The notes: generated by a model from the letters alone, not told the origin. A stretch of 64,000 nt of DNA from an uncultured Anaeroplasmatales bacterium (GCA_964478425.1 CAYZIB010000002.1:13200-77199); one strand, 5' to 3'. Shown: positions 2,734 through 48,277, counted from the stretch's first letter. A program made the numbers and translations.

Positions 2734-3819
2734 ATGAGTAGAAAATTATATAAATTTTTATTTTTTATAACATGTATTTTATCGGTAGTAATGCTTGTAT
2801 TTTTGATTGATTTAAGTTTTATTGATTTTATTATTAATTATATATTTTTTTCATTTATTAATTTATGTATAGTAATTATTATTCATGAATTAGGACATTT
2901 AGTTTTTGGTAAAATTAGCGGATATGAATTTATTTCCTTTAGATTTTTATTTTTAATTATTTATAAAATAGAAGATCAATATAAAATAAAATTTGTTCCA
3001 TTTCTACCAACATTAGTTGGGCAATGCTTAATGAAATACCCTGAATATGATAATAATACTCCTTACAAATTATTTAATTATGGAGGATTAATATTTTCTT
3101 ATAGTTATTCTTTTTTAATGTTAGTAATGACATTAAATGCAGATGACGATCTTACAAAATTATTTTTAATATCAGGATTTTTAATTAGTATGATTATTAA
3201 TTTAAGTAATTCGATTGTTGAAAAAAATATGGTTAATGATTTATCAAATGTAAATGAAATTGAAAATAATTTAATTAGTAAAAAAAGTTTTTTTTACCAA
3301 TTAGATGTAATTGGAATGTTGCAACAAGGAAAATATTTTAATGATGCTATATGTGATATTGATTTAGAAGAATTAGATTTTTCAATTCCAATTCAAATAG
3401 CAAGTGCACTTTTTATGTATTATTCTAAAATGGAAATTTTAAAATATGAAGAAGGATATAAAATAATAAGTTTAATGTATGATAATTTATATAAAATAAA
3501 TAATATTTATAAAGATACAATTTTATATACTTATTTATTTCATAAAATTGTGTATCAAAAAGAAATTTTAGAAGCAAAAGCTATTATAGATGAAAAAAAA
3601 TTAGAAAAAGAAATAATCAAATTTAGAAAAGTTAATTATGATTTAAATCAAAGAATTTATTTAGCATATAAAATTTATATTTTAAATGATTTTAATAATA
3701 TATCAAAAGATTTCGTTAATGCAAAAAAAGCAAATAAAAAATCTTTATATGAAAAAGAAGAATATTTATTAAATTCTTGGATTAATCAAATACATACAGA
3801 TTATACAAAAATGCTTTAA
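2734..3819 (+). CDS. Membrane protein with an intramembrane HExxH motif (M50/site-2-protease-like zinc metalloprotease) and a helical C-terminal domain
   Basis: 361 aa. IIIHELGHLVFGK lies inside a predicted TM helix, with several further TM segments and then a soluble helical half. It starts 9 nt after the TPR gene. I did not find the second S2P motif (NxxPxxxLDG). Confidence 0.45.
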   Translation: MSRKLYKFLFFITCILSVVMLVFLIDLSFIDFIINYIFFSFINLCIVIIIHELGHLVFGKISGYEFISFRFLFLIIYKIEDQYKIKFVPFLPTLVGQCLMKYPEYDNNTPYKLFNYGGLIFSYSYSFLMLVMTLNADDDLTKLFLISGFLISMIINLSNSIVEKNMVNDLSNVNEIENNLISKKSFFYQLDVIGMLQQGKYFNDAICDIDLEELDFSIPIQIASALFMYYSKMEILKYEEGYKIISLMYDNLYKINNIYKDTILYTYLFHKIVYQKEILEAKAIIDEKKLEKEIIKFRKVNYDLNQRIYLAYKIYILNDFNNISKDFVNAKKANKKSLYEKEEYLLNSWINQIHTDYTKML

Positions 3820-5106: not shown

Positions 5107-5182
5107 TGGTACACCTTCAGAGACTCGAACTCTGGACCCATTGATTAAGAGTCAATTGCTCTACCAACTGAGCTAAAGGTGC
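5107..5182 (-). tRNA. tRNA-Lys (anticodon CUU)
   Basis: The reverse complement GCACCTTTAGCTCAGTTGGTAGAGCAATTGACTCTTAATCAATGGGTCCAGAGTTCGAGTCTCTGAAGGTGTACCA folds as a cloverleaf. The anticodon stem is attga/tcaat, the loop is CT-CTT-AA, the T-loop is GTTCGAGTC, and CCA is encoded. Confidence 0.93.
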
Positions 5183-6208: not shown

Positions 6209-6358
6209 TAAGAAAATAAATATTTGATAAAATATCTAGTATTTTGCTATATTATGCTATTTAAATAGTATAATATTTTTTCTTTTTTGCTTAAAAAAAA
6301 CTTTTTTTTTTATATTATATAATGTATAATAGTTTATATTGAAAAAGGAGGTCATTAA

Positions 6359-7792
6359 ATGGATTTTTTTAGTAGAATACCTGGCGATTTCTTTTTATTG
6401 TTATCGTCAAAAAATAAAGAAATTTATTTAAGCTGCCTATTAGTTGTGTTTGATGCTTATGAAAAAGGAAGAATTATTGGTATTGAAAGAAGTTTAGCTG
6501 TTGACTTATTAGAAGAACATTTGACTTTTTATAAACAAGATTTAGATATGTCAGATGATGAACCTCAAATAATAATTGATGATATTTCTAATGAAACAGA
6601 AGAAGATAAAATTAGAGATAAGGCTACATTCGTTTTAAGAAAGATGATTAAATATGGTTGGATTCAAACAGATATTATGCCAGATTTAACTGAATATTTA
6701 AATTTTCCAGATTACGCAATCACCTTTTTGTCTGCAATTAAACAAATAATTAGGGAAGAAGAATTAAATGATTCAATTGATCCAACTCAATATCATGGAT
6801 ATATTTATACAATTTATTCTTTATTGATGAACAGTGGTGAAGTTGATTATGGATTAACACTTGATACAGTATATAAAAATACAATATTATTTTATCGAGA
6901 ATTAAGAAAAATTGATTACAAATTAAAAAATTATATTAGGTCTATTGTTGATCATTCTGAAATAAAAGATTTAATAGAAACTTTAATTAAACATAAAGAA
7001 GAAATATTAGATCGAAGTTATTTAAAATTAAAAACAAGTGAAAATGTTTCAAAATATAAATTAGCAATTATATCTAAATTAAGAGAATATCAAGATACAC
7101 CATTAATATTAAATATGATTGCAAATTATAATTTGCCAGAATATGCATTTGATTATGAAAAAGCATATCGTGCTTCAGAAGATAAAATAAATGAAGTTAT
7201 AGATATTTTTACATCATTTGAAGAAATCATGAAAGAAATAGATGATAAAAATAGAAATTATATTAATTCAAGCATTGGAAAAATTAAATTCTTATTAAGT
7301 AATGATACAAATGTATTAGGACAATTAAACTATATATTAAAATTTGTTAAAAAGAGTAATGAGAAAAAACGTATTGATATGGCTATAAATAAAATTAGAC
7401 CATTATTTAGTATGCATATGAATAAGTTTTTAAATAATGATTCCTTATTTACTCCAAGAGGAAATTATCAACATCAAAACACATTAGATGTTTTATTAAA
7501 TGATGATTTTGATATATCAGAAATTGAAAGAAAATTCTATTTAGAATATTCATCTAAATTTACAGAAGATCAAATATTAGAATTTGTTGATAAAAAAATG
7601 CAAGATAAAAAAGTATTAAAAGTAAGTGAAGTTTTAGGGAAAAACGCTAATGAAGATGATCTATTAAGATTTTTATATGCAATAATTTATTCTGATGAAA
7701 ACTCACAATATAAAATTAATATTTTGGACGATAAAGTTGATTTAGAAAACTTTAAGATGAATGAATTTGAAATAATCAGGAGGGAAAATTAA
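6359..7792 (+). CDS. Kleisin-like first subunit of a MukFEB/MksFEB/Wadjet-type SMC module (JetA/MksF-like by position and size)
   Basis: 477 aa, largely helical and acidic, with no enzymatic motif. It is the first gene of a coupled three-gene operon that ends in an SMC-like ATPase. Its stop overlaps the next start (TAATG at 7789-7793). The assignment rests on architecture, not a recognised signature. Confidence 0.5.
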   Translation: MDFFSRIPGDFFLLLSSKNKEIYLSCLLVVFDAYEKGRIIGIERSLAVDLLEEHLTFYKQDLDMSDDEPQIIIDDISNETEEDKIRDKATFVLRKMIKYGWIQTDIMPDLTEYLNFPDYAITFLSAIKQIIREEELNDSIDPTQYHGYIYTIYSLLMNSGEVDYGLTLDTVYKNTILFYRELRKIDYKLKNYIRSIVDHSEIKDLIETLIKHKEEILDRSYLKLKTSENVSKYKLAIISKLREYQDTPLILNMIANYNLPEYAFDYEKAYRASEDKINEVIDIFTSFEEIMKEIDDKNRNYINSSIGKIKFLLSNDTNVLGQLNYILKFVKKSNEKKRIDMAINKIRPLFSMHMNKFLNNDSLFTPRGNYQHQNTLDVLLNDDFDISEIERKFYLEYSSKFTEDQILEFVDKKMQDKKVLKVSEVLGKNANEDDLLRFLYAIIYSDENSQYKINILDDKVDLENFKMNEFEIIRREN

Positions 7793-8379
7793 TGTTTGTT
7801 GAGGATTTTGAAAGATTAAATAAAACTCAAAAAAATCTGTTTGCAGATGCATGTAACGAACTTTTAGCAAATAGTTTTATTGCTAGAGATAAAAAAGATA
7901 ATAGAAATCTATATTTGTTTGTCATAAATTTTAAATTTATGTTTGAAGAATATTTTTCTTATATTCAATATGATTTAATTGTTGATAATCAATTAGGTGT
8001 TATTCAATTATTAAGTAATACAGGAGCAAACCAATTAAAATTAAAAAAAGAAGAAAGTATTTATCTTTTATTATTAAGAATTATTTATCACGAAAAAATG
8101 AAAGAAATATCATCAAGTGATAATGTTGTTGTACCAATTACATATTTAAATGAAAAATATGCAGAATTAGAAATTGCAAAAAGAATTTATAAAACAGAAG
8201 TTGTAAATGTGTTAAGACTTTTTAAAAGATATAATTTAATAGATAATTTAGGTGATATTACAGTTTTTAATAATAAAATTGTGATTTATCCAACAATTTT
8301 ATATGCGGTTAAAGCAGAAGATATTAATGCGATTTATCAAAATTTACAAGCATTAGATCGCGCTGATGGAGGTATGTAA
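7792..8379 (+). CDS. Small second subunit (JetB/MksE/MukE-like, DUF4194-like by size and position)
   Basis: 195 aa, translationally coupled on both sides. The size and middle position match the KITE subunit of Muk/Mks/Wadjet operons. Confidence 0.5.
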   Translation: MFVEDFERLNKTQKNLFADACNELLANSFIARDKKDNRNLYLFVINFKFMFEEYFSYIQYDLIVDNQLGVIQLLSNTGANQLKLKKEESIYLLLLRIIYHEKMKEISSSDNVVVPITYLNEKYAELEIAKRIYKTEVVNVLRLFKRYNLIDNLGDITVFNNKIVIYPTILYAVKAEDINAIYQNLQALDRADGGM

Positions 8380-8380
8380 T

Positions 8381-11300
8381 ATGAAAAAACTTACAAAAAT
8401 CAGATTAATAAATTGGCATTATTTTGCAAATGAAACAATTGAAGTACAAAACAATATTTTATTATCTGGTCAAAATGCTTCAGGTAAATCAACAATTCTA
8501 GATGCAATTAGTTATGTTATGACAGCTGGAGATCAAAGCTTCAATATGGCTGCTAATGAAAAAGGGAAAAGAGATTTAAAAGGGTATGTAAAATGTAAAT
8601 TAGGATTAGATGATCGTGAATATCTAAGAATGGGAGATACAACAGGTCATATTGCTCTTGAATTTTTCGATGAACTTAAAAAAGTTTATTTTGTTGTTGG
8701 GGTTGTAATCGATGCTTTTGGTGAAGCAAGACCAAAATCAGTATTTTATTCATTTGATGGAAGAATAGATAATTCTGTATTTATAGATGATGATGGAGTT
8801 GTATATTCAACAATGAATTTTAAAAAAGTTCATAGAGATTATGAAATATATACAACAAATAAAGAAGCTAAATCTCGCTTTAGAACAAGATTTGGTTCAA
8901 TTAATGAAAGATATTTCCAATTAATTCCTAAAGCTTTAGCTTTTAAACCAATTAGTGATGTTAAAGACTTTATTTATCAACACTTATTAGAAGAAAAGAA
9001 AATTGAAGTTGAAAGTATTCAAGAAAGTATTAGATCTTATAAGGAATTAGAAGAAACTTTAAAAGTAATTAAAAAGAAAATTGAAAAACTAGAAGAAATT
9101 CAAAATAAATATGAAGAACTTACAAGTTTTAGTGGTAAAAGCAAATTTTATCAATATGTCATTGAATCAATTAATATTGAAAAAAATAATTTATTAATTC
9201 AAAATAAAAAACGTGATATTGAAAGATTTAAAAATGATGCTGATAAGAAAAATGTTGATTTGATAAATATTGGTAATGAATTAGATAGATTAGATGAAAG
9301 AAGTAAATCATTATATACTCAATTACAATCAAATGAAAATTTTAAAAATTTAGAAGTATATGATAAACAAATCGAATCTATTAAAAAAGAAATGGAAAGT
9401 TTGCTTAATCGTAAAAAATCTTATGAAGAAAGAAAATCAAATTTAACATTAATTGGTAAAGATTTAAAACAAAAAACTAATAATAAAATTTATGAAGAAT
9501 TAGAAAAAATAGATAAATTAGTTATTACAGATGAAAATTTAAATAAAGTTCAAAAACAAGTTTTAGATTTAGACCAAAAATTTAAAGAAATGAATTACAC
9601 TTTATTAAGTGAAAAAGCTAAACTTCAAACTAAAAAAGAAGAAATGGCAAAAGAAATTCAAAGAGTTTCAAATATAATTCGTAAATTAGAAAATCGTAAA
9701 CTAAGTTATTCTGATATGATTTTATATATTCAACAAGAAATAGAAACTCAATTACAAAACAAATATCAGAAAAATATTTCTGTGCATATTTTAGCAGAAT
9801 TATTAGAAATAAGTGATCCAACTTGGCATGATACAATCGAAGATTTTTTAGGTGGACAAAGATTTAACTTAATTGTTGAACCAAGATATTATGATGAAGC
9901 ATTAAGAATATATGATAGTATAAAGAAAAATAGAAGAGTATTTGGTATAGGGTTAGTTAACACTAAAAAGATTACAGAATACAATCAATATCAACCTAAT
10001 TCTTTAGCAAGCATTATAAAAACAGAAAATCAAGATGCAAGACATTATATTAATTATTATTGTGGAAATGTAATAATGTGTGATCATGTTGATGATTTAG
10101 ATAAATATCAAGCATCTATTACAAAAAGTGGAATGCTTTATCGTGGATATATTGTAAGACCTTTAAATGATCAAACAGAAAAACCATTTATTGGTAAGAA
10201 TGCTGTCGATAATCAAAGAAAAAAATATACACAAGTGGGTCTTGAATTAAGAGAAAAATACTTACTTGCAGAAAAACAAATTGATGATATTACAGCTCAA
10301 TTAAATGATATATCAACTATTAATTTAAGAGATTTTGCTCAATTTTTAGATATTGATTTGATTATTAGTCATAAAAATGATGATTTAAAAAATTTAATCA
10401 TTAAAAAACAAGAATTAGCTAAAAAAGGTGTAAGTGCTCTTGAAAGTGAATATGAACAAGTTAATAATTTGATAAAAACTAAAAATGAAGATAAAAATAG
10501 ATTATATATGGAAATAGGGCATATTAAATCTGAAGTTTCAAATTTAGAAAATCAAATAACTGAATTAACTGATCAAGGAGTAAATACTGTTTTAGTATTA
10601 GAAGAATTACTAAAAGAAGATATTACGTTTAAAGATGAAACAAATAACATCTTAAAATTTGCATTAAATAATATGCAAGAATTAAATAGAATTCAAAAAC
10701 AATATATAACTGATCTTGATATTGAACAAAAAAATTTATTAAATATTGAAGATTCTTTAAAAACATTACAATATCGTTATGATATTGAATTTAATAGCGG
10801 TTACGGAACAGGTGTTAATAATATGCCTAGTTTCACTGATGAATTAAATAAGTTAGTTAAATCAGAATTGATTCAATATGAAGCAAAAGTTAGACAAGCA
10901 AGAGAAAAAGCAGAATTAGTATTTAAAGAAGATTTCTTGTCTAAATTAAGAGATTATATTATAACTGCTCAACAAGAAATAAAAGATGTTAATGACGCTT
11001 TAAAATCAGTTAAATTTGGTTCTGACTCATATCAATTTATTTTCCCTAAATCAGGAGAATATGGTGGAATATATGAAATGGTAGTACAAGATGAAAATTT
11101 TGAACCAGGATCAACTATATTTACTGCAGATTTTGAAATGAAGTACCAAAATGAACTTGAAAGATTGTTTGATGAATTAAGTCAAGATGAACTTAATAGT
11201 AAAGGCGCTTTAAATAAATTTATGGATTATAGAACATACATGGATTATGATATTGAAATAACAAATAGTGCAGGTCATGTTTTAAAATATTCAAAAATAT

Positions 11301-11623
11301 TTAAAGAAAAATCCGGAGGGGAAACACAAGTTCCATTTTATGTTGCTGTTATTGCATCATTTGTTCAAATATATCAAACTGCAACTAAAAATCCGAATAA
11401 TGATGCTGTATGTTTAGTATTATTTGATGAGGTATTTGATAAAATGGATAGTACAAGAATTAAAGCGATGATGAGTTTTATTCGTGAATTACCTATTCAA
11501 ATTATTTTAGCTACACCTCCTCAAAGAATTGAAATTATATCTAAATATATTGATACAACAGTAATTGTTTATCGTGATCAACATCGCGTAAAAACAGAAC
11601 AAACAATTAAACTTTTACCATAA
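8381..11623 (+). CDS. SMC-like ABC ATPase (JetC/MksB-like)
   Basis: The likely start is ATG 8381 (GGAGG 8 nt upstream), not the track start at 8366. Walker A is GQNASGKST (8468-8494). About 900 aa of heptad-rich coiled coil follow, with a central globular hinge-like segment (about aa 478-610). The signature is SGGE (11312-11323) and Walker B is LVLFDEVF (11414-11437). Confidence 0.8.
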   Translation: MKKLTKIRLINWHYFANETIEVQNNILLSGQNASGKSTILDAISYVMTAGDQSFNMAANEKGKRDLKGYVKCKLGLDDREYLRMGDTTGHIALEFFDELKKVYFVVGVVIDAFGEARPKSVFYSFDGRIDNSVFIDDDGVVYSTMNFKKVHRDYEIYTTNKEAKSRFRTRFGSINERYFQLIPKALAFKPISDVKDFIYQHLLEEKKIEVESIQESIRSYKELEETLKVIKKKIEKLEEIQNKYEELTSFSGKSKFYQYVIESINIEKNNLLIQNKKRDIERFKNDADKKNVDLINIGNELDRLDERSKSLYTQLQSNENFKNLEVYDKQIESIKKEMESLLNRKKSYEERKSNLTLIGKDLKQKTNNKIYEELEKIDKLVITDENLNKVQKQVLDLDQKFKEMNYTLLSEKAKLQTKKEEMAKEIQRVSNIIRKLENRKLSYSDMILYIQQEIETQLQNKYQKNISVHILAELLEISDPTWHDTIEDFLGGQRFNLIVEPRYYDEALRIYDSIKKNRRVFGIGLVNTKKITEYNQYQPNSLASIIKTENQDARHYINYYCGNVIMCDHVDDLDKYQASITKSGMLYRGYIVRPLNDQTEKPFIGKNAVDNQRKKYTQVGLELREKYLLAEKQIDDITAQLNDISTINLRDFAQFLDIDLIISHKNDDLKNLIIKKQELAKKGVSALESEYEQVNNLIKTKNEDKNRLYMEIGHIKSEVSNLENQITELTDQGVNTVLVLEELLKEDITFKDETNNILKFALNNMQELNRIQKQYITDLDIEQKNLLNIEDSLKTLQYRYDIEFNSGYGTGVNNMPSFTDELNKLVKSELIQYEAKVRQAREKAELVFKEDFLSKLRDYIITAQQEIKDVNDALKSVKFGSDSYQFIFPKSGEYGGIYEMVVQDENFEPGSTIFTADFEMKYQNELERLFDELSQDELNSKGALNKFMDYRTYMDYDIEITNSAGHVLKYSKIFKEKSGGETQVPFYVAVIASFVQIYQTATKNPNNDAVCLVLFDEVFDKMDSTRIKAMMSFIRELPIQIILATPPQRIEIISKYIDTTVIVYRDQHRVKTEQTIKLLP

Positions 11624-11630
11624 AAAAATA

Positions 11631-11648
11631 ATATCCCGCAAGGGATAT
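11631..11648. terminator. GC-cored hairpin between convergent genes
   Basis: atatccc-gcaa-gggatat lies directly after the SMC-like gene stop and abuts the cvpA-like stop. Confidence 0.6.
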
Positions 11649-12367
11649 TATAATTTTGTTTTAATTAAGGAAATAATTAATTGTAACGGATTATTTTCGT
11701 ATAAATATTTAGTAAAAGTCATTTTATCAGTATTTAATTCTAAAGCTTTATTAATAAATTCATGAGTAAAATCAAATAATTCATATTTTAATAATAAAGG
11801 GATAACCAATAAAAGTAATGATATGAATAATATTGTAAATGATAAAGATATTATTCCACCAATTAAACTATCAATTAAATTTATTGGGGTAATACTGATT
11901 ATGGTTTTACATATTTTCTTTATAAATAAGAAAATTATTAAAAATAAAACTAAAAGTAAGAGATAAATTACAATAGATGATATAATATTATTTAATTGTG
12001 GTGCAAGATTATAAGCTATTGATTGATTAGTTTCAATAACAAGGTTCTTAGTAATAAGATCACTTAAAAAACTTGGAATATTTAATTTATTTATTCCTTC
12101 GCTTATTAAAGATTTGTCATTATCAATAATAATTGTGCTATAAAATTCATCTTTTGTAATTAAATAATTTTCGATTTTTATTATATTATTGTCAATAGTG
12201 TTTTTAAAAATTTCTTTTATAGGTGATATTAAAAAAAATGAACCTATAATTACACCAATAAGAACAATTATATTAATTATTCTTTTAAAGAAACCTTTTT
12301 TAAAACCTTTTATAAATGATAATAATAAAATTAAAATAAGTATTATATCAATAATTAATGAAGTCAT
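11648..12367 (-). CDS. cvpA: CvpA family membrane protein
   Basis: 239 aa. The N-terminus IIDIILILILLLSFIKGFKKGFFKR and the 4-TM layout are typical of the colicin V production protein family. Confidence 0.7.
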   Translation of the reverse strand: MTSLIIDIILILILLLSFIKGFKKGFFKRIINIIVLIGVIIGSFFLISPIKEIFKNTIDNNIIKIENYLITKDEFYSTIIIDNDKSLISEGINKLNIPSFLSDLITKNLVIETNQSIAYNLAPQLNNIISSIVIYLLLLVLFLIIFLFIKKICKTIISITPINLIDSLIGGIISLSFTILFISLLLLVIPLLLKYELFDFTHEFINKALELNTDKMTFTKYLYENNPLQLIISLIKTKL

Positions 12368-15155: not shown

Positions 15156-16820
15156 ATGTTTAAAACTGATTTGGAAATTGCTCAAGAATGTAAAATGAAA
15201 AATATTACTGAAATTGGTAAAATAATTGATTTATCAATAGATGATTTAGAATTATATGGAAAATATAAAGCTAAAATAAGTGATGATGTAAGGAAAAGGG
15301 TTTCTAATAATCAAGATGGAAGTTTAATTTTAGTAACAGCTATTACTCCTACAAAAGCTGGAGAAGGAAAATCAACTGTTACAATAGGACTTGGAGAAGC
15401 ATTAAATAAATTAAATAAAAAATGTATTGTAACTTTAAGAGAACCTAGTTTAGGTCCAACTTTAGGCTTAAAAGGTGGAGCTGCAGGTGGAGGATATGCA
15501 CAAGTAGTTCCTATGGAAGATTTAAATTTACATTTTACTGGTGATATACATGCTATAACTGCAGCTAATAATATTATTAGTGCTGCACTTGATAATCATA
15601 TAAAACAAGGTAATAAACTAAATATTGATTTAAATAATATCTTATGGAGAAGATGTCTTGATTTAAATGATAGAGCATTAAGAACTATTAAAATTGGTAT
15701 GGGTGGAAATATCAATGGTAAAGAGAGAATTGATCATTTTGATATTACAGTAGCAAGTGAAATTATGGCCATTTTATGTCTTTCAAACGATCTAGACGAT
15801 TTAAAAGAAAGATGTAAAAGAATTGTTATTGGATATGATATTTATGGAAAAATTATCTATTTAGATGATTTAAAGTGTGCAGGTACTGTAGCTGTTTTAT
15901 TAAAAGATGCAATAAAACCTAATTTAATTCAAACAGTAGAAAATACACCTGCTATAGTTCACGGGGGACCATTTGCTAATATTGCACATGGTTGTAACTC
16001 TGTAATTGCTACTAAACTTGCGTTAAAACTTGCTCCTTATGTTGTAACAGAAGCTGGATTTGGAGCAGATTTAGGAGCTGAAAAATTTTTAAATATTAAA
16101 TGTAGAAATAATAATATAAGTCCTTCTTGTGTTTGTATTGTTGCAACTATTCGTGCATTAAAAATGCATGGTGGAGTAAATGAAAATGATTTAAAAATTA
16201 AAAATATTGAAGCTTTGAAATTAGGATATCAAAATTTAGTTAAACACATTTTAAACATAAAAGGATTTAATTTACCATATGTAGTTGCAATTAATAAATT
16301 TAATACAGATACAGAAGATGAAATTAATACATTAAAACAATTATTAGATAATGATAATCATCCATATGCTTTATGTGATGTACATGCAAGTGGTGGAGAT
16401 GGAGGAATTTTATTAGCTAATAAAGTATTAGAAAATATTAAAAAAATAAAAATTAATTATACATATGATTTAAATGATTCTATTGAAACTAAAGTTTTAA
16501 AAATTGCAACTAAAATATATGGGGCAAATAATGTAAATTTTAGTGATGAAGCAATAAAGAAAATAGAAGAATATAACAAAAATGGATGGGATAAATTACC
16601 TATTTGTATGGCTAAAACTCAATATTCTTTTTCAGATAATCCTAAATTACTTGGATGGCCTAAAGATTTTACATTAAATGTTAAAGATTTTAAAATTTCT
16701 TTAGGAGCAGGGTTTATTGTTTGTTTTTTAGGTGATATTATGACAATGCCAGGATTACCTAAAGAACCTGCTTTAAATAATATAGATATAATTGATGGAA
16801 AAATAGTGGGATTATTTTAA
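15156..16820 (+). CDS. fhs: Formate--tetrahydrofolate ligase
   Basis: 554 aa with the [17 protein letters not shown]-loop and conserved FTHFS blocks throughout. Confidence 0.93.
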
Positions 16821-17293
16821 TGAATTTTATTTTAATTTTGATAATATGTATAGTTTTATTGTTTATAATATTTAAAATAGTTGGTATTTATAATAAAAAG
16901 AAAGCATATAAATTAATATATCAATATTTGAATAATAAATATAAAAATGTTTTATTAGGGAATAAAATATATGATTATTATATAGAAGATATTGATTCAT
17001 GTATAAAAGTATTATTTTTAAATGAAAATGATGAATTAGTAATAAATAGTAAATATATTTGGCAAATAAATCATGATATGAAAATAGGTAATACGCCATC
17101 TAGTTCACAAAATGTATTAGGAATAAAAAATTTTATGAATATAAATAAAAATAAAATTGTTATTATTTATTCTACATGCTATAGCATAAAAAAATATATT
17201 AATGAGTGTGAAATGATTTTTGTTAATGAAAATACTGATTGTTATGGAGTAAAATTTTTAAAATTTAAAGATTTAAATCAAAAAGAGGGATAA
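16820..17293 (+). CDS. Hypothetical membrane-anchored protein
   Basis: 157 aa with one N-terminal TM helix. The start overlaps the fhs stop (TAATG). No recognisable motif. Confidence 0.4.
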   Translation: MNFILILIICIVLLFIIFKIVGIYNKKKAYKLIYQYLNNKYKNVLLGNKIYDYYIEDIDSCIKVLFLNENDELVINSKYIWQINHDMKIGNTPSSSQNVLGIKNFMNINKNKIVIIYSTCYSIKKYINECEMIFVNENTDCYGVKFLKFKDLNQKEG

Positions 17294-17604: not shown

Positions 17605-17633
17605 ATGAATAAATTAAAAGTGAGGTGGTTTTA

Positions 17634-18365
17634 ATGGCTTTAGATAGAGCTAAATTAAACTTTGTTTTAGGAAACATCTCTGCATTGCCAGTAGATGTTA
17701 AAAAAGAATTAGAAAAGGATTTTCAAGTAAGACATTTATTGTTTTCAACAACAATCGAAAATAAGGTATCATTGTCCTTAGATGAAGCACGAGCATTTTT
17801 AGAAAATGGTGAAGAATGTTTAAATATGTTAAATGAAGAAACAAAAAAACATTTTATAAACCAAAAAAATGCCTATGATTTTATGCTTGCTAGGGTTAAA
17901 GATGATACTTTTTTTAATGACGAATTAATAAAACGCTTTCATGAAATTATAATGGATGGAGAATATGGAGCTGGTGAGTTTAGAACAGTAAATATTAGTG
18001 TTAATGGATCAATGTATGTTCCACCAAGACATGAAAAGATTAATCAAAAAATGGAAAAAATGTTTACAGAAATGGAATTAAAAACTGATTTAATTGAAAA
18101 AGTAGCGTTTGCTCATGCCTATTTAGATAAAATACATCCATTCTTAGACGGAAATGGAAGATGTTCAAGATTAGTATTAAATTATTTATTACTTAAAAAT
18201 AATTTGTTACCAATAACATTTGATTTAGAATATAAAACTGAATATTTTAAAGCATTAGAAAAATTTAAAGTTGAAAAAGATTTAAATCCACTTGTTGAAC
18301 TAATTCAAACATTAGAAAATATTGAATTAGAAAAATATGAAAAAGAAATAAGAAAGTATATGTGA
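17634..18365 (+). CDS. fic: Fic family protein (class II, with an N-terminal inhibitory helix)
   Basis: The canonical HPFLDGNGRCSR motif is at 18135-18170, and the inhibitory motif STTIEN ([ST]xxxE[GN]) at 17745-17762. The likely start is ATG 17634 behind GAGGTGG; the track start at 17625 is a GTG. Confidence 0.85.
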   Translation: MALDRAKLNFVLGNISALPVDVKKELEKDFQVRHLLFSTTIENKVSLSLDEARAFLENGEECLNMLNEETKKHFINQKNAYDFMLARVKDDTFFNDELIKRFHEIIMDGEYGAGEFRTVNISVNGSMYVPPRHEKINQKMEKMFTEMELKTDLIEKVAFAHAYLDKIHPFLDGNGRCSRLVLNYLLLKNNLLPITFDLEYKTEYFKALEKFKVEKDLNPLVELIQTLENIELEKYEKEIRKYM

Positions 18366-18375
18366 GGAGATAAAT

Positions 18376-20394
18376 ATGCAAGAATTTAAAACAGAGAAAA
18401 TAAAAAATGTCGCAATATTAGGGCATTTAGGAAGTGGAAAAACATCTTTATCTGAATCATTATTATACATTAGTAAAACAACTGATAAAAAAGGCGATAT
18501 AGAACATAAATCAACTGTATCAGATTATATGGTTGAAGAACAATCTAGATTAAGTTCAGTATCTTCAAGTATTATTCCAGTTTTATATAAAGATTATAAA
18601 ATAAATTTTATTGATGTTCCTGGATCTGAAGAATTTGTAGGAGATTTAAATAATGTTTTATCTATTGTAAAAGGGGCAATCATTTTAATAGATGCTACAT
18701 CAAAAGTACAAGTTGGTACAGAAAGATTTTGGAGAGAATGTCATAAAAGAAATATTCCAACTATCGTTTTTGTAAATAAAATGGATAAAGAAAATATTAA
18801 AGTTGAAGAACTATTAGATGATATTTTAGAAAAGTTAGGAAAAAGTGCAATTCCTTTTACATATCCAACTTTTGAAAATGATAAATTTGTTGGATTTGAA
18901 GATTTAATTGATGGGAATACTCGTGATGATATTAAAGATCAAATATTAGAAATGGTTGCTGAAACAAGCGATGAATTAATGGAAAAATATTTTGGTGGTG
19001 AACCAATAACAGAAGAAGAAATGAATTTAGGTTTAACTAAAAGTTTAGTTGACGGAAAATTATGTCCAGTATTATTTGGATCAGCAACAAATGATATTGG
19101 TATTGAAAAATTATTAGATACAATTTTAAGATATTTTCCAAAACAAACAAATTTAAAACCATTAAAAGGAATTAATCCAGACACTAATCTTGAAGAAACA
19201 AGAATAACTAATGAATCTGAACCATTTAGTGGATATGTATTTAAAACATTAGTTGATCCATTTTTAGGGGTTATGAGTTTATTTAAAGTAAGTTCTGGTA
19301 AAATTAATTTAGGTGATGAAATTTATTTACCAGCAACAGGTAAAGTAGAAAAAGTTAATAGTTTATTTATTTTAAGAGGTAAAACTCAAATACCAGTAGA
19401 TAAATTAGTTGCTGGTGATTTAGGTGGATTAAATAAAATTAATGATTTAACTACAGGTCAAACAATCTGTGATAAGAAAAATAAAATTCAATATAACAAA
19501 GTTAAGGTACAAACACCAACAATGTATATTGCAATCGAACCTAAAAATAAACAAGATGAAGATAAAATATCAGGCGCACTACAAAAATTAAATATGGAAG
19601 ATCAATCATTTGAAATAAGAAGAAATAAAGAAACAAGCCAATTATTAATAGGTGGGCAAGGTAATGTTCATATTCAACTTATTTTAGATAGAATGAAAAA
19701 TATGTTTAAAGTTGATGTAACTCAAGAAGATCAAAAAATTGTATATCGTGAAACAATAAAACAAAAAGCAGAAGCTGAAGGTAGATATATAAAACAATCT
19801 GGTGGTTCAGGTCAATATGGTGTTGTAGCAATCGAATTTGAACCATGTGATGAACAATTTGTTTTTGCTGAAAGAGTATTTGGAGGAGCTGTTCCTAAAA
19901 ACTTTTTCCCAGCTGTTGAAAAAGGATTAAATGAAGCAATGGAACATGGACCATTAGCAGGATTCCCAGTTATTAACATTAAATGTACTTTATTTGATGG
20001 AAAATATCATCCAGTTGATTCCAGTGAACAATCATTTAAAATGGCTGCAATTATGGCTTTTAGAAAAGCTTGTGAAGAAAATAAAATTAAATCTACTATT
20101 TTAGAACCAATTATGAAAGTTAAAGTTTTAATTAAAGATGAATATGTTGGTGATATTATGGGAGATGTAACAAAAAGAAGAGGAAGAATACTTGGTATAA
20201 ATCCGATAGATGGCGGATTCCAAGAAGTAGAAGCAGAAATACCTGAAGCGGAAATTATTAAATATACAATTGATTTAAAAGCTATGACTCAAGGATCAGG
20301 ATCATTTAGTAGAGAATTTGCTAGATATGAAGAAGTACCAAGTAATATTATTCCTAAAATAATTGAAACTTATAAAAAAGAAGAAAGATTATAA
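18376..20394 (+). CDS. EF-G family translational GTPase paralogue with divergent G2/G3 motifs
   Basis: 672 aa with five-domain EF-G colinearity (domain IV/V blocks such as YHPVDSSEQSFKMAA). G1 is GHLGSGKTS and G4 is NKMD. G3 is DVPGSEEF instead of DTPGHxDF, and the ERGITI switch I is replaced by SRLSSVSS. Confidence 0.8.
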   Translation: MQEFKTEKIKNVAILGHLGSGKTSLSESLLYISKTTDKKGDIEHKSTVSDYMVEEQSRLSSVSSSIIPVLYKDYKINFIDVPGSEEFVGDLNNVLSIVKGAIILIDATSKVQVGTERFWRECHKRNIPTIVFVNKMDKENIKVEELLDDILEKLGKSAIPFTYPTFENDKFVGFEDLIDGNTRDDIKDQILEMVAETSDELMEKYFGGEPITEEEMNLGLTKSLVDGKLCPVLFGSATNDIGIEKLLDTILRYFPKQTNLKPLKGINPDTNLEETRITNESEPFSGYVFKTLVDPFLGVMSLFKVSSGKINLGDEIYLPATGKVEKVNSLFILRGKTQIPVDKLVAGDLGGLNKINDLTTGQTICDKKNKIQYNKVKVQTPTMYIAIEPKNKQDEDKISGALQKLNMEDQSFEIRRNKETSQLLIGGQGNVHIQLILDRMKNMFKVDVTQEDQKIVYRETIKQKAEAEGRYIKQSGGSGQYGVVAIEFEPCDEQFVFAERVFGGAVPKNFFPAVEKGLNEAMEHGPLAGFPVINIKCTLFDGKYHPVDSSEQSFKMAAIMAFRKACEENKIKSTILEPIMKVKVLIKDEYVGDIMGDVTKRRGRILGINPIDGGFQEVEAEIPEAEIIKYTIDLKAMTQGSGSFSREFARYEEVPSNIIPKIIETYKKEERL

Positions 20395-47754: not shown

Positions 47755-48225
47755 ATGGGTTATGATTATTTAGTTAACTTATATAAATTAAAAGAACATT
47801 ATGAATTTGATAATTTAAAACAAGAAAATATTAGAATAGAAAGAGTATTAAGTCCTAATTTTGATTTAGTAGTTGATTTTGTTAAAACTAATTTTCATGA
47901 TGGATGGGCAAGCGAAGTTAAACAAGCATTATATAAAGCAAATCCATCTTGTTTTATTGCAATTTATAATAAAAAAATTGTTGGATTTGCATGTTATGAT
48001 GCAACTGCTAAAGGGTATTTTGGACCAATTGGTGTTGCAAATAATATGCAAAACAAAGGAATAGGAAGAGCATTAGTTCTTACTACAATGGTTAATATGC
48101 GTAATGATGGATATGGATATGCAATTATAGGAAGTGGTGCAGGTAAAGAAAATTTTTATAAGAATTGTGTTGGCGCTATTAGAATTGAAGATGATTCAAT
48201 TAATTTATATAAGAGAATGGTATAA
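47755..48225 (+). CDS. GNAT family N-acetyltransferase
   Basis: 156 aa with the acetyl-CoA-binding motif MQNKGIGRAL (Q/RxxGxG/A). Confidence 0.75.
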   Translation: MGYDYLVNLYKLKEHYEFDNLKQENIRIERVLSPNFDLVVDFVKTNFHDGWASEVKQALYKANPSCFIAIYNKKIVGFACYDATAKGYFGPIGVANNMQNKGIGRALVLTTMVNMRNDGYGYAIIGSGAGKENFYKNCVGAIRIEDDSINLYKRMV

Positions 48226-48255
48226 AAAACGCTTTTGCGTTTTTTTTTTTTTTTT
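48226..48255 (+). terminator. Intrinsic terminator with an unusually long T-tract
   Basis: aaaacgc-tttt-gcgtttt runs into a T16 homopolymer (48240-48255). Confidence 0.75.
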
Positions 48256-48277
48256 ATATAATATATGTGGTGATATT

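Follow-up and report, generated by a model that had tools for sequence, protein, structure and literature searches.

Introduction

Wadjet systems (JetABCD) contain a kleisin (JetA), a KITE protein (JetB) and an ATPase of the structural maintenance of chromosomes (SMC) kind (JetC) together with the Toprim nuclease JetD (DUF3322/DUF2220). Purified JetABC was found to hydrolyse ATP and to extrude DNA loops without JetD, whereas cleavage needs JetD (10.1101/2024.02.17.580791), and JetD was found to dock onto the JetC 'larynx' (10.1101/2023.11.03.565488). MksBEF of Pseudomonas aeruginosa and MukBEF of Escherichia coli, which act in chromosome organisation, are three-gene kleisin/KITE/SMC operons without a nuclease; both were proposed to descend from a JetABCD-like ancestor through the loss of JetD (PMC10586767), and MksBEF systems that lack MksG have been known since 2011 (10.1101/2022.10.04.510915). 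The present analysis deals with a likewise nuclease-free jetA-jetB-jetC operon, found at positions 6359-11623 of a 64-kb stretch of DNA from an uncultured Anaeroplasmatales bacterium (GCA_964478425.1, CAYZIB010000002.1:13200-77199). The whole stretch is referred to as the window and comes from a contig whose length is 108 kb or more. The operon probably encodes a domesticated, nuclease-free loop-extruding SMC complex of the Wadjet family, which would function as an MksBEF-like condensin on the host chromosome; this reading is drawn from sequence comparison.

An earlier note on this DNA had described the operon as a kleisin/KITE/SMC module of the MukBEF/MksBEF/Wadjet kind without JetD, which would be a condensin or else a Wadjet derivative that has no nuclease, and this core reading was upheld by the Pfam, PADLOC and JetD searches given below. 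Nuclease-free complexes of the Wadjet/Mks type are already established, and what is new here is a probable domestication that arose independently and extends over a whole lineage of wall-less, AT-rich Bacilli. The architecture is unsurprising to specialists, and the clade offers a case for the conversion from defence to condensin that is unusually clean and easy to work with.

Assignment of the three proteins

The product of jetA was found to match Pfam JetA (PF18982) over its full length (E=5.8e-70, 236 bits against a cutoff of 26.2) as well as PADLOC JetA1 (E=1.9e-98). The product of jetB matched Pfam DUF4194 (PF13835; E=2.2e-27, 96 bits against a cutoff of 32.7) and PADLOC JetB1 (E=1.2e-56), followed by a match of its family profile to E. 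coli JetB (8as8_C, E=0.0098). The product of jetC matched PADLOC JetC1 (PDLC00519) over its full length with 1022 bits and was found to contain the Pfam domains AAA_29, AAA_23 and SbcC_Walker_B; its family profile matched E. coli JetC (8as8_A, 9e-16), P. aeruginosa JetC (8dk2_C, 5e-8) and the MukB head (3euj, 5e-4). By these profiles JetA, JetB and JetC belong as ordinary members to the Wadjet JetABC families (PADLOC type 1). Clear signatures were therefore present in the first two proteins, where the earlier note had recognised none, and its option of a divergent, uncharacterised branch was dropped.

No solved relative of JetA was found in the Protein Data Bank by sequence or profile, where just weak MarR-like winged-helix matches were returned. 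An AlphaFold2 model of JetA built on 42 homologues (predicted local distance difference test score 72) was found to superpose best on MukF of MukBEF, the best Foldseek matches being MukF 9gm7_C (9e-5) and 3euh_B (6e-4), followed by JetA 8q72_E (7e-3) and 9qxu_J. The template modelling scores to these MukF and JetA chains were low (0.17-0.27), which is expected because the kleisin is flexible and multi-domain. The counter-scenario in which the first two proteins would match no kleisin or KITE family did not occur in Pfam (PF18982, DUF4194), in PADLOC or at the level of the JetA fold, and the kleisin/KITE/SMC assignment of the three proteins stands.

The closest solved structures to JetC and JetB were those of JetABC(D) from E. 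coli GF4-3 and P. aeruginosa PA14 (8as8, 8q72, 8dk1/8dk2), whose JetA is too divergent for detection by sequence. The A2B4C4 dimer-of-motors architecture assumed here, like the mechanism of loop extrusion, is taken from these structures. The solved complexes need JetD docked at the JetC 'larynx' for their function, whereas no such partner was found in the window or in the related loci that were searched.

The ATPase motifs of JetC were found exactly at the positions first given for them and were invariant in the homologues (Table 1). The central globular segment that had been noticed between them was recovered as a weak SMC_hinge match below the Pfam cutoff, and the central block W482...P501 was invariant or nearly so in the homologue alignment. 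An assignment of JetC to the RecN/SbcC-type ATPases was tried and rejected on the NCBIfam scores and the partner proteins. The Rad50 models scored 11-17 bits against cutoffs of 700-1087, and no SbcD/Mre11 gene was found next to the operon by open reading frame (ORF) and Pfam annotation of the window. The hinge-like centre together with the kleisin and KITE partners points to a true SMC complex and not to SbcCD/Rad50-Mre11 or RecN.

The module is not a member of the Mks or Muk sequence families, as Pfam MksE gave E=0.043 and 14.6 bits on JetB against a cutoff of 27 and the NCBIfam models MukF, MukE and MukB did not match any of the module proteins. This difference in sequence family from MksBEF and MukBEF argues for an independent loss of JetD, in another Wadjet sub-lineage and another phylum-level host group. 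The general SMC/kleisin/KITE logic was found to be common with Smc-ScpAB, whereas JetA and JetB are not ScpA and ScpB and JetC scored 52.6 bits with the TIGR02168 SMC model against a cutoff of 567. Compared with Wadjet type I JetABCD (DUF5716/PF18982-type JetA; plasmids of Cohnella herbarum, Rossellomorea sp. and Butyrivibrio proteoclasticus), the same families, gene order, sizes and coupling were found; the window JetC is 25-28% identical to that of these plasmid-borne controls, and its operon is without jetD.

Absence of jetD from the window and from related loci

The JetD search was seeded with the JetD proteins of three JetABCD systems that are carried on plasmids and have a JetA of the same type (Cohnella, Rossellomorea and Butyrivibrio) and expanded to 113 JetD proteins, from which a hidden Markov model (HMM) was built. 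Searches by tblastn with two JetD proteins and by hmmsearch --max with the 113-JetD HMM on six-frame translations were applied to the window and to 84 related loci, each together with as much as 10 kb of sequence to either side, belonging to Izemoplasmatales, Acholeplasmatales, Anaeroplasmataceae and related metagenome-assembled genomes (MAGs). No JetD was found by either method in the window or in any of the 84 loci (best E=0.63; positive controls E<1e-113), and the jetD gene adjacent to the operon in close relatives, which the earlier note had allowed for as a sign of simple local deletion, was thus encountered in 0/84. A fused JetD was not found in JetA or JetC either, the former having 477 aa compared with ~470 aa and the latter 1080 aa compared with 1099-1135 aa in JetD-positive systems, and no JetC domain was lost in the JetD-less proteins relative to the JetD-positive ones. 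The interval between jetC and the following cvpA gene left no space for a degraded jetD.

The nearest outgroup was defined as the next tier of JetC similarity and was represented by 80 loci from metagenomes. With the same JetD HMM, jetD was found adjoining jetC in 74 of these 80 loci, where it abuts or overlaps the jetC stop codon (E=1e-33 to 1e-135, mostly 1e-84 or better), and it directly abuts jetC in all three plasmid-borne controls. The exceptions were one truncated contig, locus L144, and loci L149, L150 and L152 of an Agathobacter rectalis-like group.

These exceptions were found to be of two kinds. L144 is a sporadic loss of JetD within a JetD-positive clade. L149, L150 and L152 form, together with A. 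rectalis itself (L088:1759-7351, on the 251-kb 'plasmid' NZ_CP143948.1), a second and independent JetD-less JetABC group with a JetC of ~1110-1135 aa; in A. rectalis the next gene encodes a gamma-carbonic anhydrase. Loss of JetD is thus recurrent in this Wadjet subtype.

Such losses in JetD-positive lineages would be in keeping with a decaying Wadjet remnant heading to a pseudogene after the loss of jetD. This explanation was effectively rejected and is considered highly improbable, as the window and ~80 species were found to have all three ORFs intact, the catalytic motifs were invariant, the translational coupling was kept, and the ratio of nonsynonymous to synonymous substitution rates (dN/dS) lay between 0.03 and 0.12 in jetA, jetB and jetC (close pairs with unsaturated dS), which shows strong purifying selection on the genes. 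In the comparison of the window with its 82%-identical relative (L004) the ratio was 0.12 for JetC and 0.057 for JetB.

The JetC columns G493, N779, E852, N911 and E1078 (numbering of a 1085-aa form) were found to be conserved at 0.8 or above in the JetD-positive proteins and variable in the JetD-less clade. Three of the five are located in the C-terminal head, and the relaxed columns may be relics of a JetD-docking surface.

A canonical Wadjet system with its nuclease in trans, encoded by a jetD elsewhere in the genome or provided by an unrelated nuclease recruited to JetC or JetB, is considered unlikely. It would agree with the full retention of the ATPase motifs and of the overall architecture, and the search covered 64 kb of the contig and the flanks of the relatives. 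On the other side, an unlinked jetD would be unusual because jetD abuts jetC in the outgroup and in the controls, and no named JetD homologue from Izemoplasmatales, Acholeplasmatales or Anaeroplasmataceae was present among the best 120 matches listed. The relaxation of the JetC head residues E852, N911 and E1078 in the clade is suggestive in the same direction.

Relatives and gene neighbourhoods

The JetC homologues numbered ~1,900, the best 120 of which were 45-82% identical; those with names were from Izemoplasmatales, Mycoplasmatota or Bacillota MAGs. Sampling of one genome per GTDB species gave 80 loci, each again with flanks of at most 10 kb to either side; they derive from MAGs of Izemoplasmatales, Acholeplasmatales, Anaeroplasmataceae and 'Bacillales UBA' and include Anaeroplasma bactoclasticum ATCC 27112; Erysipelotrichales was also found among the source-record labels of the genomes in the JetD-less clade. 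All 80 species-level loci contained jetA-jetB-jetC without jetD. The operon is thus no peculiarity of one small genome, and the proposed comparison of synteny in relatives returned conserved flanks with jetABC without jetD throughout.

About 30 loci of the Izemoplasmatales type were found to contain the gene order hrcA-grpE-dnaK-dnaJ-padR-jetABC-rsmE-mtaB...phoH-era-recO. In the Acholeplasmatales/Anaeroplasmataceae loci (47 of the 80) the order was ppa-ychF-jetABC-sepF(-ileS), with the sepF start 0-3 nt past the jetC stop in most of the 47; the sepF products matched Pfam SepF above its cutoff (E=1e-10 to 8e-13). In another lineage (L089:10981-12708) the order jetABC-ylmE-sepF-ylmH-ileS was found, which places jetABC at the tail of the dcw division cluster. 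The window's own lineage, represented by the 82% and a 62% relative, contained jetABC-cvpA(-)-DAGK-bipA, and one 52% relative contained jetABC-groES-groEL. No sepF of this subfamily was found in the window.

As an example, the sepF gene of A. bactoclasticum ATCC 27112 is located at L071:13246-13602, and 46 other loci were found to be alike. The linkage of sepF and jetABC is new as far as the literature search showed, and no description of the present JetD-less clade was found in the literature searched.

A PadR-family regulator of 116 aa was found between dnaJ and jetA, ~36 nt 5' of jetA, at L003:5628-5978 and in ~25 other Izemoplasmatales-type loci. The protein may be a dedicated regulator of jetABC in these loci; in the window a padR gene next to jetA is absent.

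Evolutionary behaviour of the JetD-less clade

The pairwise distances of JetA, JetB and JetC were found to track those of the adjacent DnaK, DnaJ, MtaB and YchF proteins (Pearson r 0.77-0.93, intercepts ~0), with a slope of ~1 for JetC against DnaJ and MtaB. In an exhaustive search clustered at 50% identity, the clade collapsed to a handful of representatives at 43-47% identity, followed by a drop to 28-37% identity, at which hundreds of representatives were found. In a neighbour-joining tree the JetD-less loci formed one clade nested among JetD-positive lineages. At JetC p-distances of 0.1-0.5, the JetD-less pairs shared 22-61% of the flanking ORFs and 85-100% of the pairs shared at least one, whereas JetD-positive pairs at matched p-distance shared essentially none (~0%). 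This contrast indicates that the JetD-positive relatives behave like mobile defence cassettes and the JetD-less clade like a core chromosomal operon in fixed housekeeping loci. From the tree, the distances and the flanks, JetD is judged to have been absent already from the ancestor of this large clade, in which the operon is inherited vertically.

Patchy occurrence, mobility and fast evolution are typical of defence systems. Instead of a patchy, horizontally mobile distribution, co-divergence at r ~0.9 and conserved flanks were found across the JetD-less loci. The module is therefore outside the system-level definition of Wadjet, which combines JetD with a mobile distribution, although its proteins are in Wadjet sequence families.

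A non-nucleolytic system against plasmids or other mobile elements, in which small circles would be completely extruded and then compacted, silenced or mis-segregated in the manner of Smc5/6, was given a low probability. The membership of the proteins in the Wadjet JetABC families and not in those of MksBEF/MukBEF speaks for it, JetABC comes to a stop on plasmids that it has extruded completely, also when JetD is absent (10.1101/2024.02.17.580791), and the established SMC-based silencing of extrachromosomal DNA by Smc5/6 is a precedent (PMC10586767). Against it stand the vertical inheritance in fixed housekeeping loci, the low dN/dS and DnaJ-like rate of the clade, the behaviour of its JetD-positive sister lineages, which do behave like mobile defence cassettes, and the operon fusion with sepF, which fits cell-cycle biology better.

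Proposed function

The domesticated, MksBEF-like condensin therefore remains the favoured explanation, and a role of the module in chromosome organisation is predicted, by indirect signs, from its vertical inheritance, its purifying selection and its synteny with sepF and the dnaK operon. The module looks like a complete and expressed jetA-jetB-jetC operon. The Toprim nuclease JetD would have been lost once, in an ancestor common to a large clade of wall-less, AT-rich Bacilli and related bacteria. JetC would dimerise through its hinge, the JetA kleisin would bridge the JetC heads, the N-terminal winged-helix domain of JetA would join two motors into JetA2B4C4, and JetB dimers would sit on JetA. 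The JetABC complex would hydrolyse ATP and extrude DNA loops, and with no nuclease to recruit its output would be DNA folding and not cleavage. For such a nuclease-free folding motor the host chromosome would be the most likely target, for compaction and segregation, and in the Acholeplasmatales/Anaeroplasmataceae branch jetABC would be co-transcribed with the division gene sepF.

The following points weigh against a chromosomal condensin. Chromosomal loop extrusion is undocumented for a complex of the JetABCD type (PMC10586767). The synteny with sepF and the dnaK operon is circumstantial, and both neighbours are absent from the window's lineage. The trees were built by neighbour joining and carry no bootstrap support, and a jetD or another nuclease is possible beyond the searched 64 kb and the flanks of up to 10 kb. 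If the genomes of the clade also carry Smc-ScpAB, the presence of a second condensin would have to be explained separately; a blastp search for SMC, ScpA and ScpB with B. subtilis and approximate consensus queries, which covered the window and the collected loci and not whole genomes, returned JetC heads and one weak ABC-transporter ATPase (E=5e-4).

A more far-reaching proposal is a third, independent conversion from defence to condensin, in which the nuclease was lost at the base of Izemoplasmatales/Acholeplasmatales/Anaeroplasmataceae and the operon was fixed beside the dnaK operon or the sepF-ileS tail of the division cluster, the JetD-positive sister lineages being still extant. The complex could then be the principal chromosome-folding motor, coupled to SepF-dependent division and possibly replacing Smc-ScpAB in some reduced genomes. 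In this full form the proposal is speculative and rather improbable; if true, it would provide an example, alive today, of how MukBEF/MksBEF are proposed to have originated from Wadjet.

The known MukBEF and MksBEF examples are too diverged for the step of nuclease loss to be traced. The JetD-less clade remains alignable with its JetD-positive sisters, the JetC of the nearest metagenomic relatives being 33-37% identical, and contains a clean switch from mobile cassette to vertical locus as well as a cultured member, A. bactoclasticum ATCC 27112; the domestication hypothesis is for these reasons directly testable. The questions opened by it concern the residues of JetC and JetB that relax after the loss of JetD, the loading of JetABC on the chromosome and its folding, and the coupling to SepF-dependent division. 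For annotation, single-gene labels could misread the core operon as Wadjet defence, since HMMs of the PADLOC type label the genes JetA1/JetB1/JetC1. Rules requiring all four jet genes would skip a JetD-less operon.

Operon layout and surroundings in the window

The three ORFs were found on the same strand and translationally coupled, with the sizes that had been read before, and the features of the operon are collected in Table 1. The jetA/jetB junction is a TAATG overlap, as the earlier note had it, although the coordinates differ: the overlap occupies 7790-7794, and the positions 7789-7793 given for it read TTAAT. The 1-nt gap between the jetB stop TAA (8377-8379) and the jetC start was confirmed along with the preceding GGAGG (8368-8372). 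An alternative ATG at 8366 would give a JetC of 1085 aa instead of 1080 aa, and the ATG at 8381 was favoured because the homologues begin MKKLTKIRLINW.

Table 1. Features of the jetABC operon and its borders in the window
Feature	Position	Strand	Description
Candidate sigma-70-type promoter	6224..6253	+	TTGATA, 18-nt spacer, TATATT, TG before -10; within the 150-nt spacer upstream of jetA
jetA	6359..7792	+	kleisin subunit, 477 aa; AAAGGAGG ahead of it
jetB	7792..8379	+	KITE subunit (MukE-like), 195 aa; start overlaps the jetA stop
jetC	8381..11623	+	SMC-like ABC ATPase, 1080 aa
Walker A GQNASGKST	8468..8494	+	G30, N32, G35, K36, S37, T38 invariant in 21 homologues
Hinge-like central globular domain	9788..10093	+	JetC aa 470-571; Pfam SMC_hinge E=2.7e-4, 21.8 bits vs cutoff 22.5
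ABC signature SGGE	11312..11323	+	S978, G979, G980, E981 invariant
Walker B and D-loop LVLFDEVF(DKMD)	11414..11437	+	F1015, D1016, E1017 ... D1020 invariant
Bidirectional intrinsic terminator	11628..11651	.	10-bp stem, T-runs on both strands; ends the operon and the convergent cvpA
cvpA	11648-12367	-	convergent to jetC; Colicin_V/CvpA domain

The hairpin that had been noticed after jetC was predicted to terminate transcription in both directions (2 sites against an expectation of 0.6), with a folding energy of -14.9 kcal/mol (z=-6.06) that was equalled by 0/200 shuffles, and the gene directly after it was confirmed as a convergent cvpA. The candidate promoter is weakly supported, as 53 promoter-like sites were found in this 22% GC DNA against 61 expected in shuffled sequence.

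The composition of the module (21-24% GC) was in agreement with that of the window (18-30%), as had been stated before. The source organism has 22% GC, uses translation table 11 and has a PolC-type polymerase, features that put it in Bacillota/Mycoplasmatota. Annotation with Pfam of the 40 other window ORFs of at least 150 aa gave housekeeping or ordinary cellular genes, three ORFs being without a match; examples are FTHFS, an EF-G paralogue, TrmA-like, MgtC, DegV, CorC and ABC exporters, followed by NFACT, Gmk, UvrC, Clp ATPase and PolC. No integrase or transposase was found among these 40 ORFs, in line with the earlier reading, and no JetD, SMC, ScpA or ScpB. The ORFs at 889-2724 and 2734-3819 were taken for dnaK-dnaJ by size and were rejected as such, being a TPR protein and an M50-like peptidase.

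A tRNA-Lys(CTT) was found at 5107-5182 (-), shortly upstream of the jet operon and between pepT and an M19 dipeptidase gene, with no integrase or repeat near it pointing to an island boundary; a tRNA-Cys(GCA) is located at 51044-51117 (-).

The sole window gene with a toxin or defence flavour encodes a stand-alone Fic/DOC-domain protein (17625-18365, +; Pfam E=5e-21), located between an unannotated ORF of 157 aa and the EF-G paralogue (18376-20394). This 157-aa ORF (16820-17293, +) and one of 304 aa (48134-49048, +) gave no Pfam match at E<=1e-5, and the latter shares ~90 nt with the 3' end of a GNAT acetyltransferase gene. The single Pfam match of a 504-aa ORF (55415-56929, +) was a weak one to the leucyl-tRNA synthetase editing domain (E=2e-6), and the product could be a free-standing editing-domain protein or an unrelated protein.

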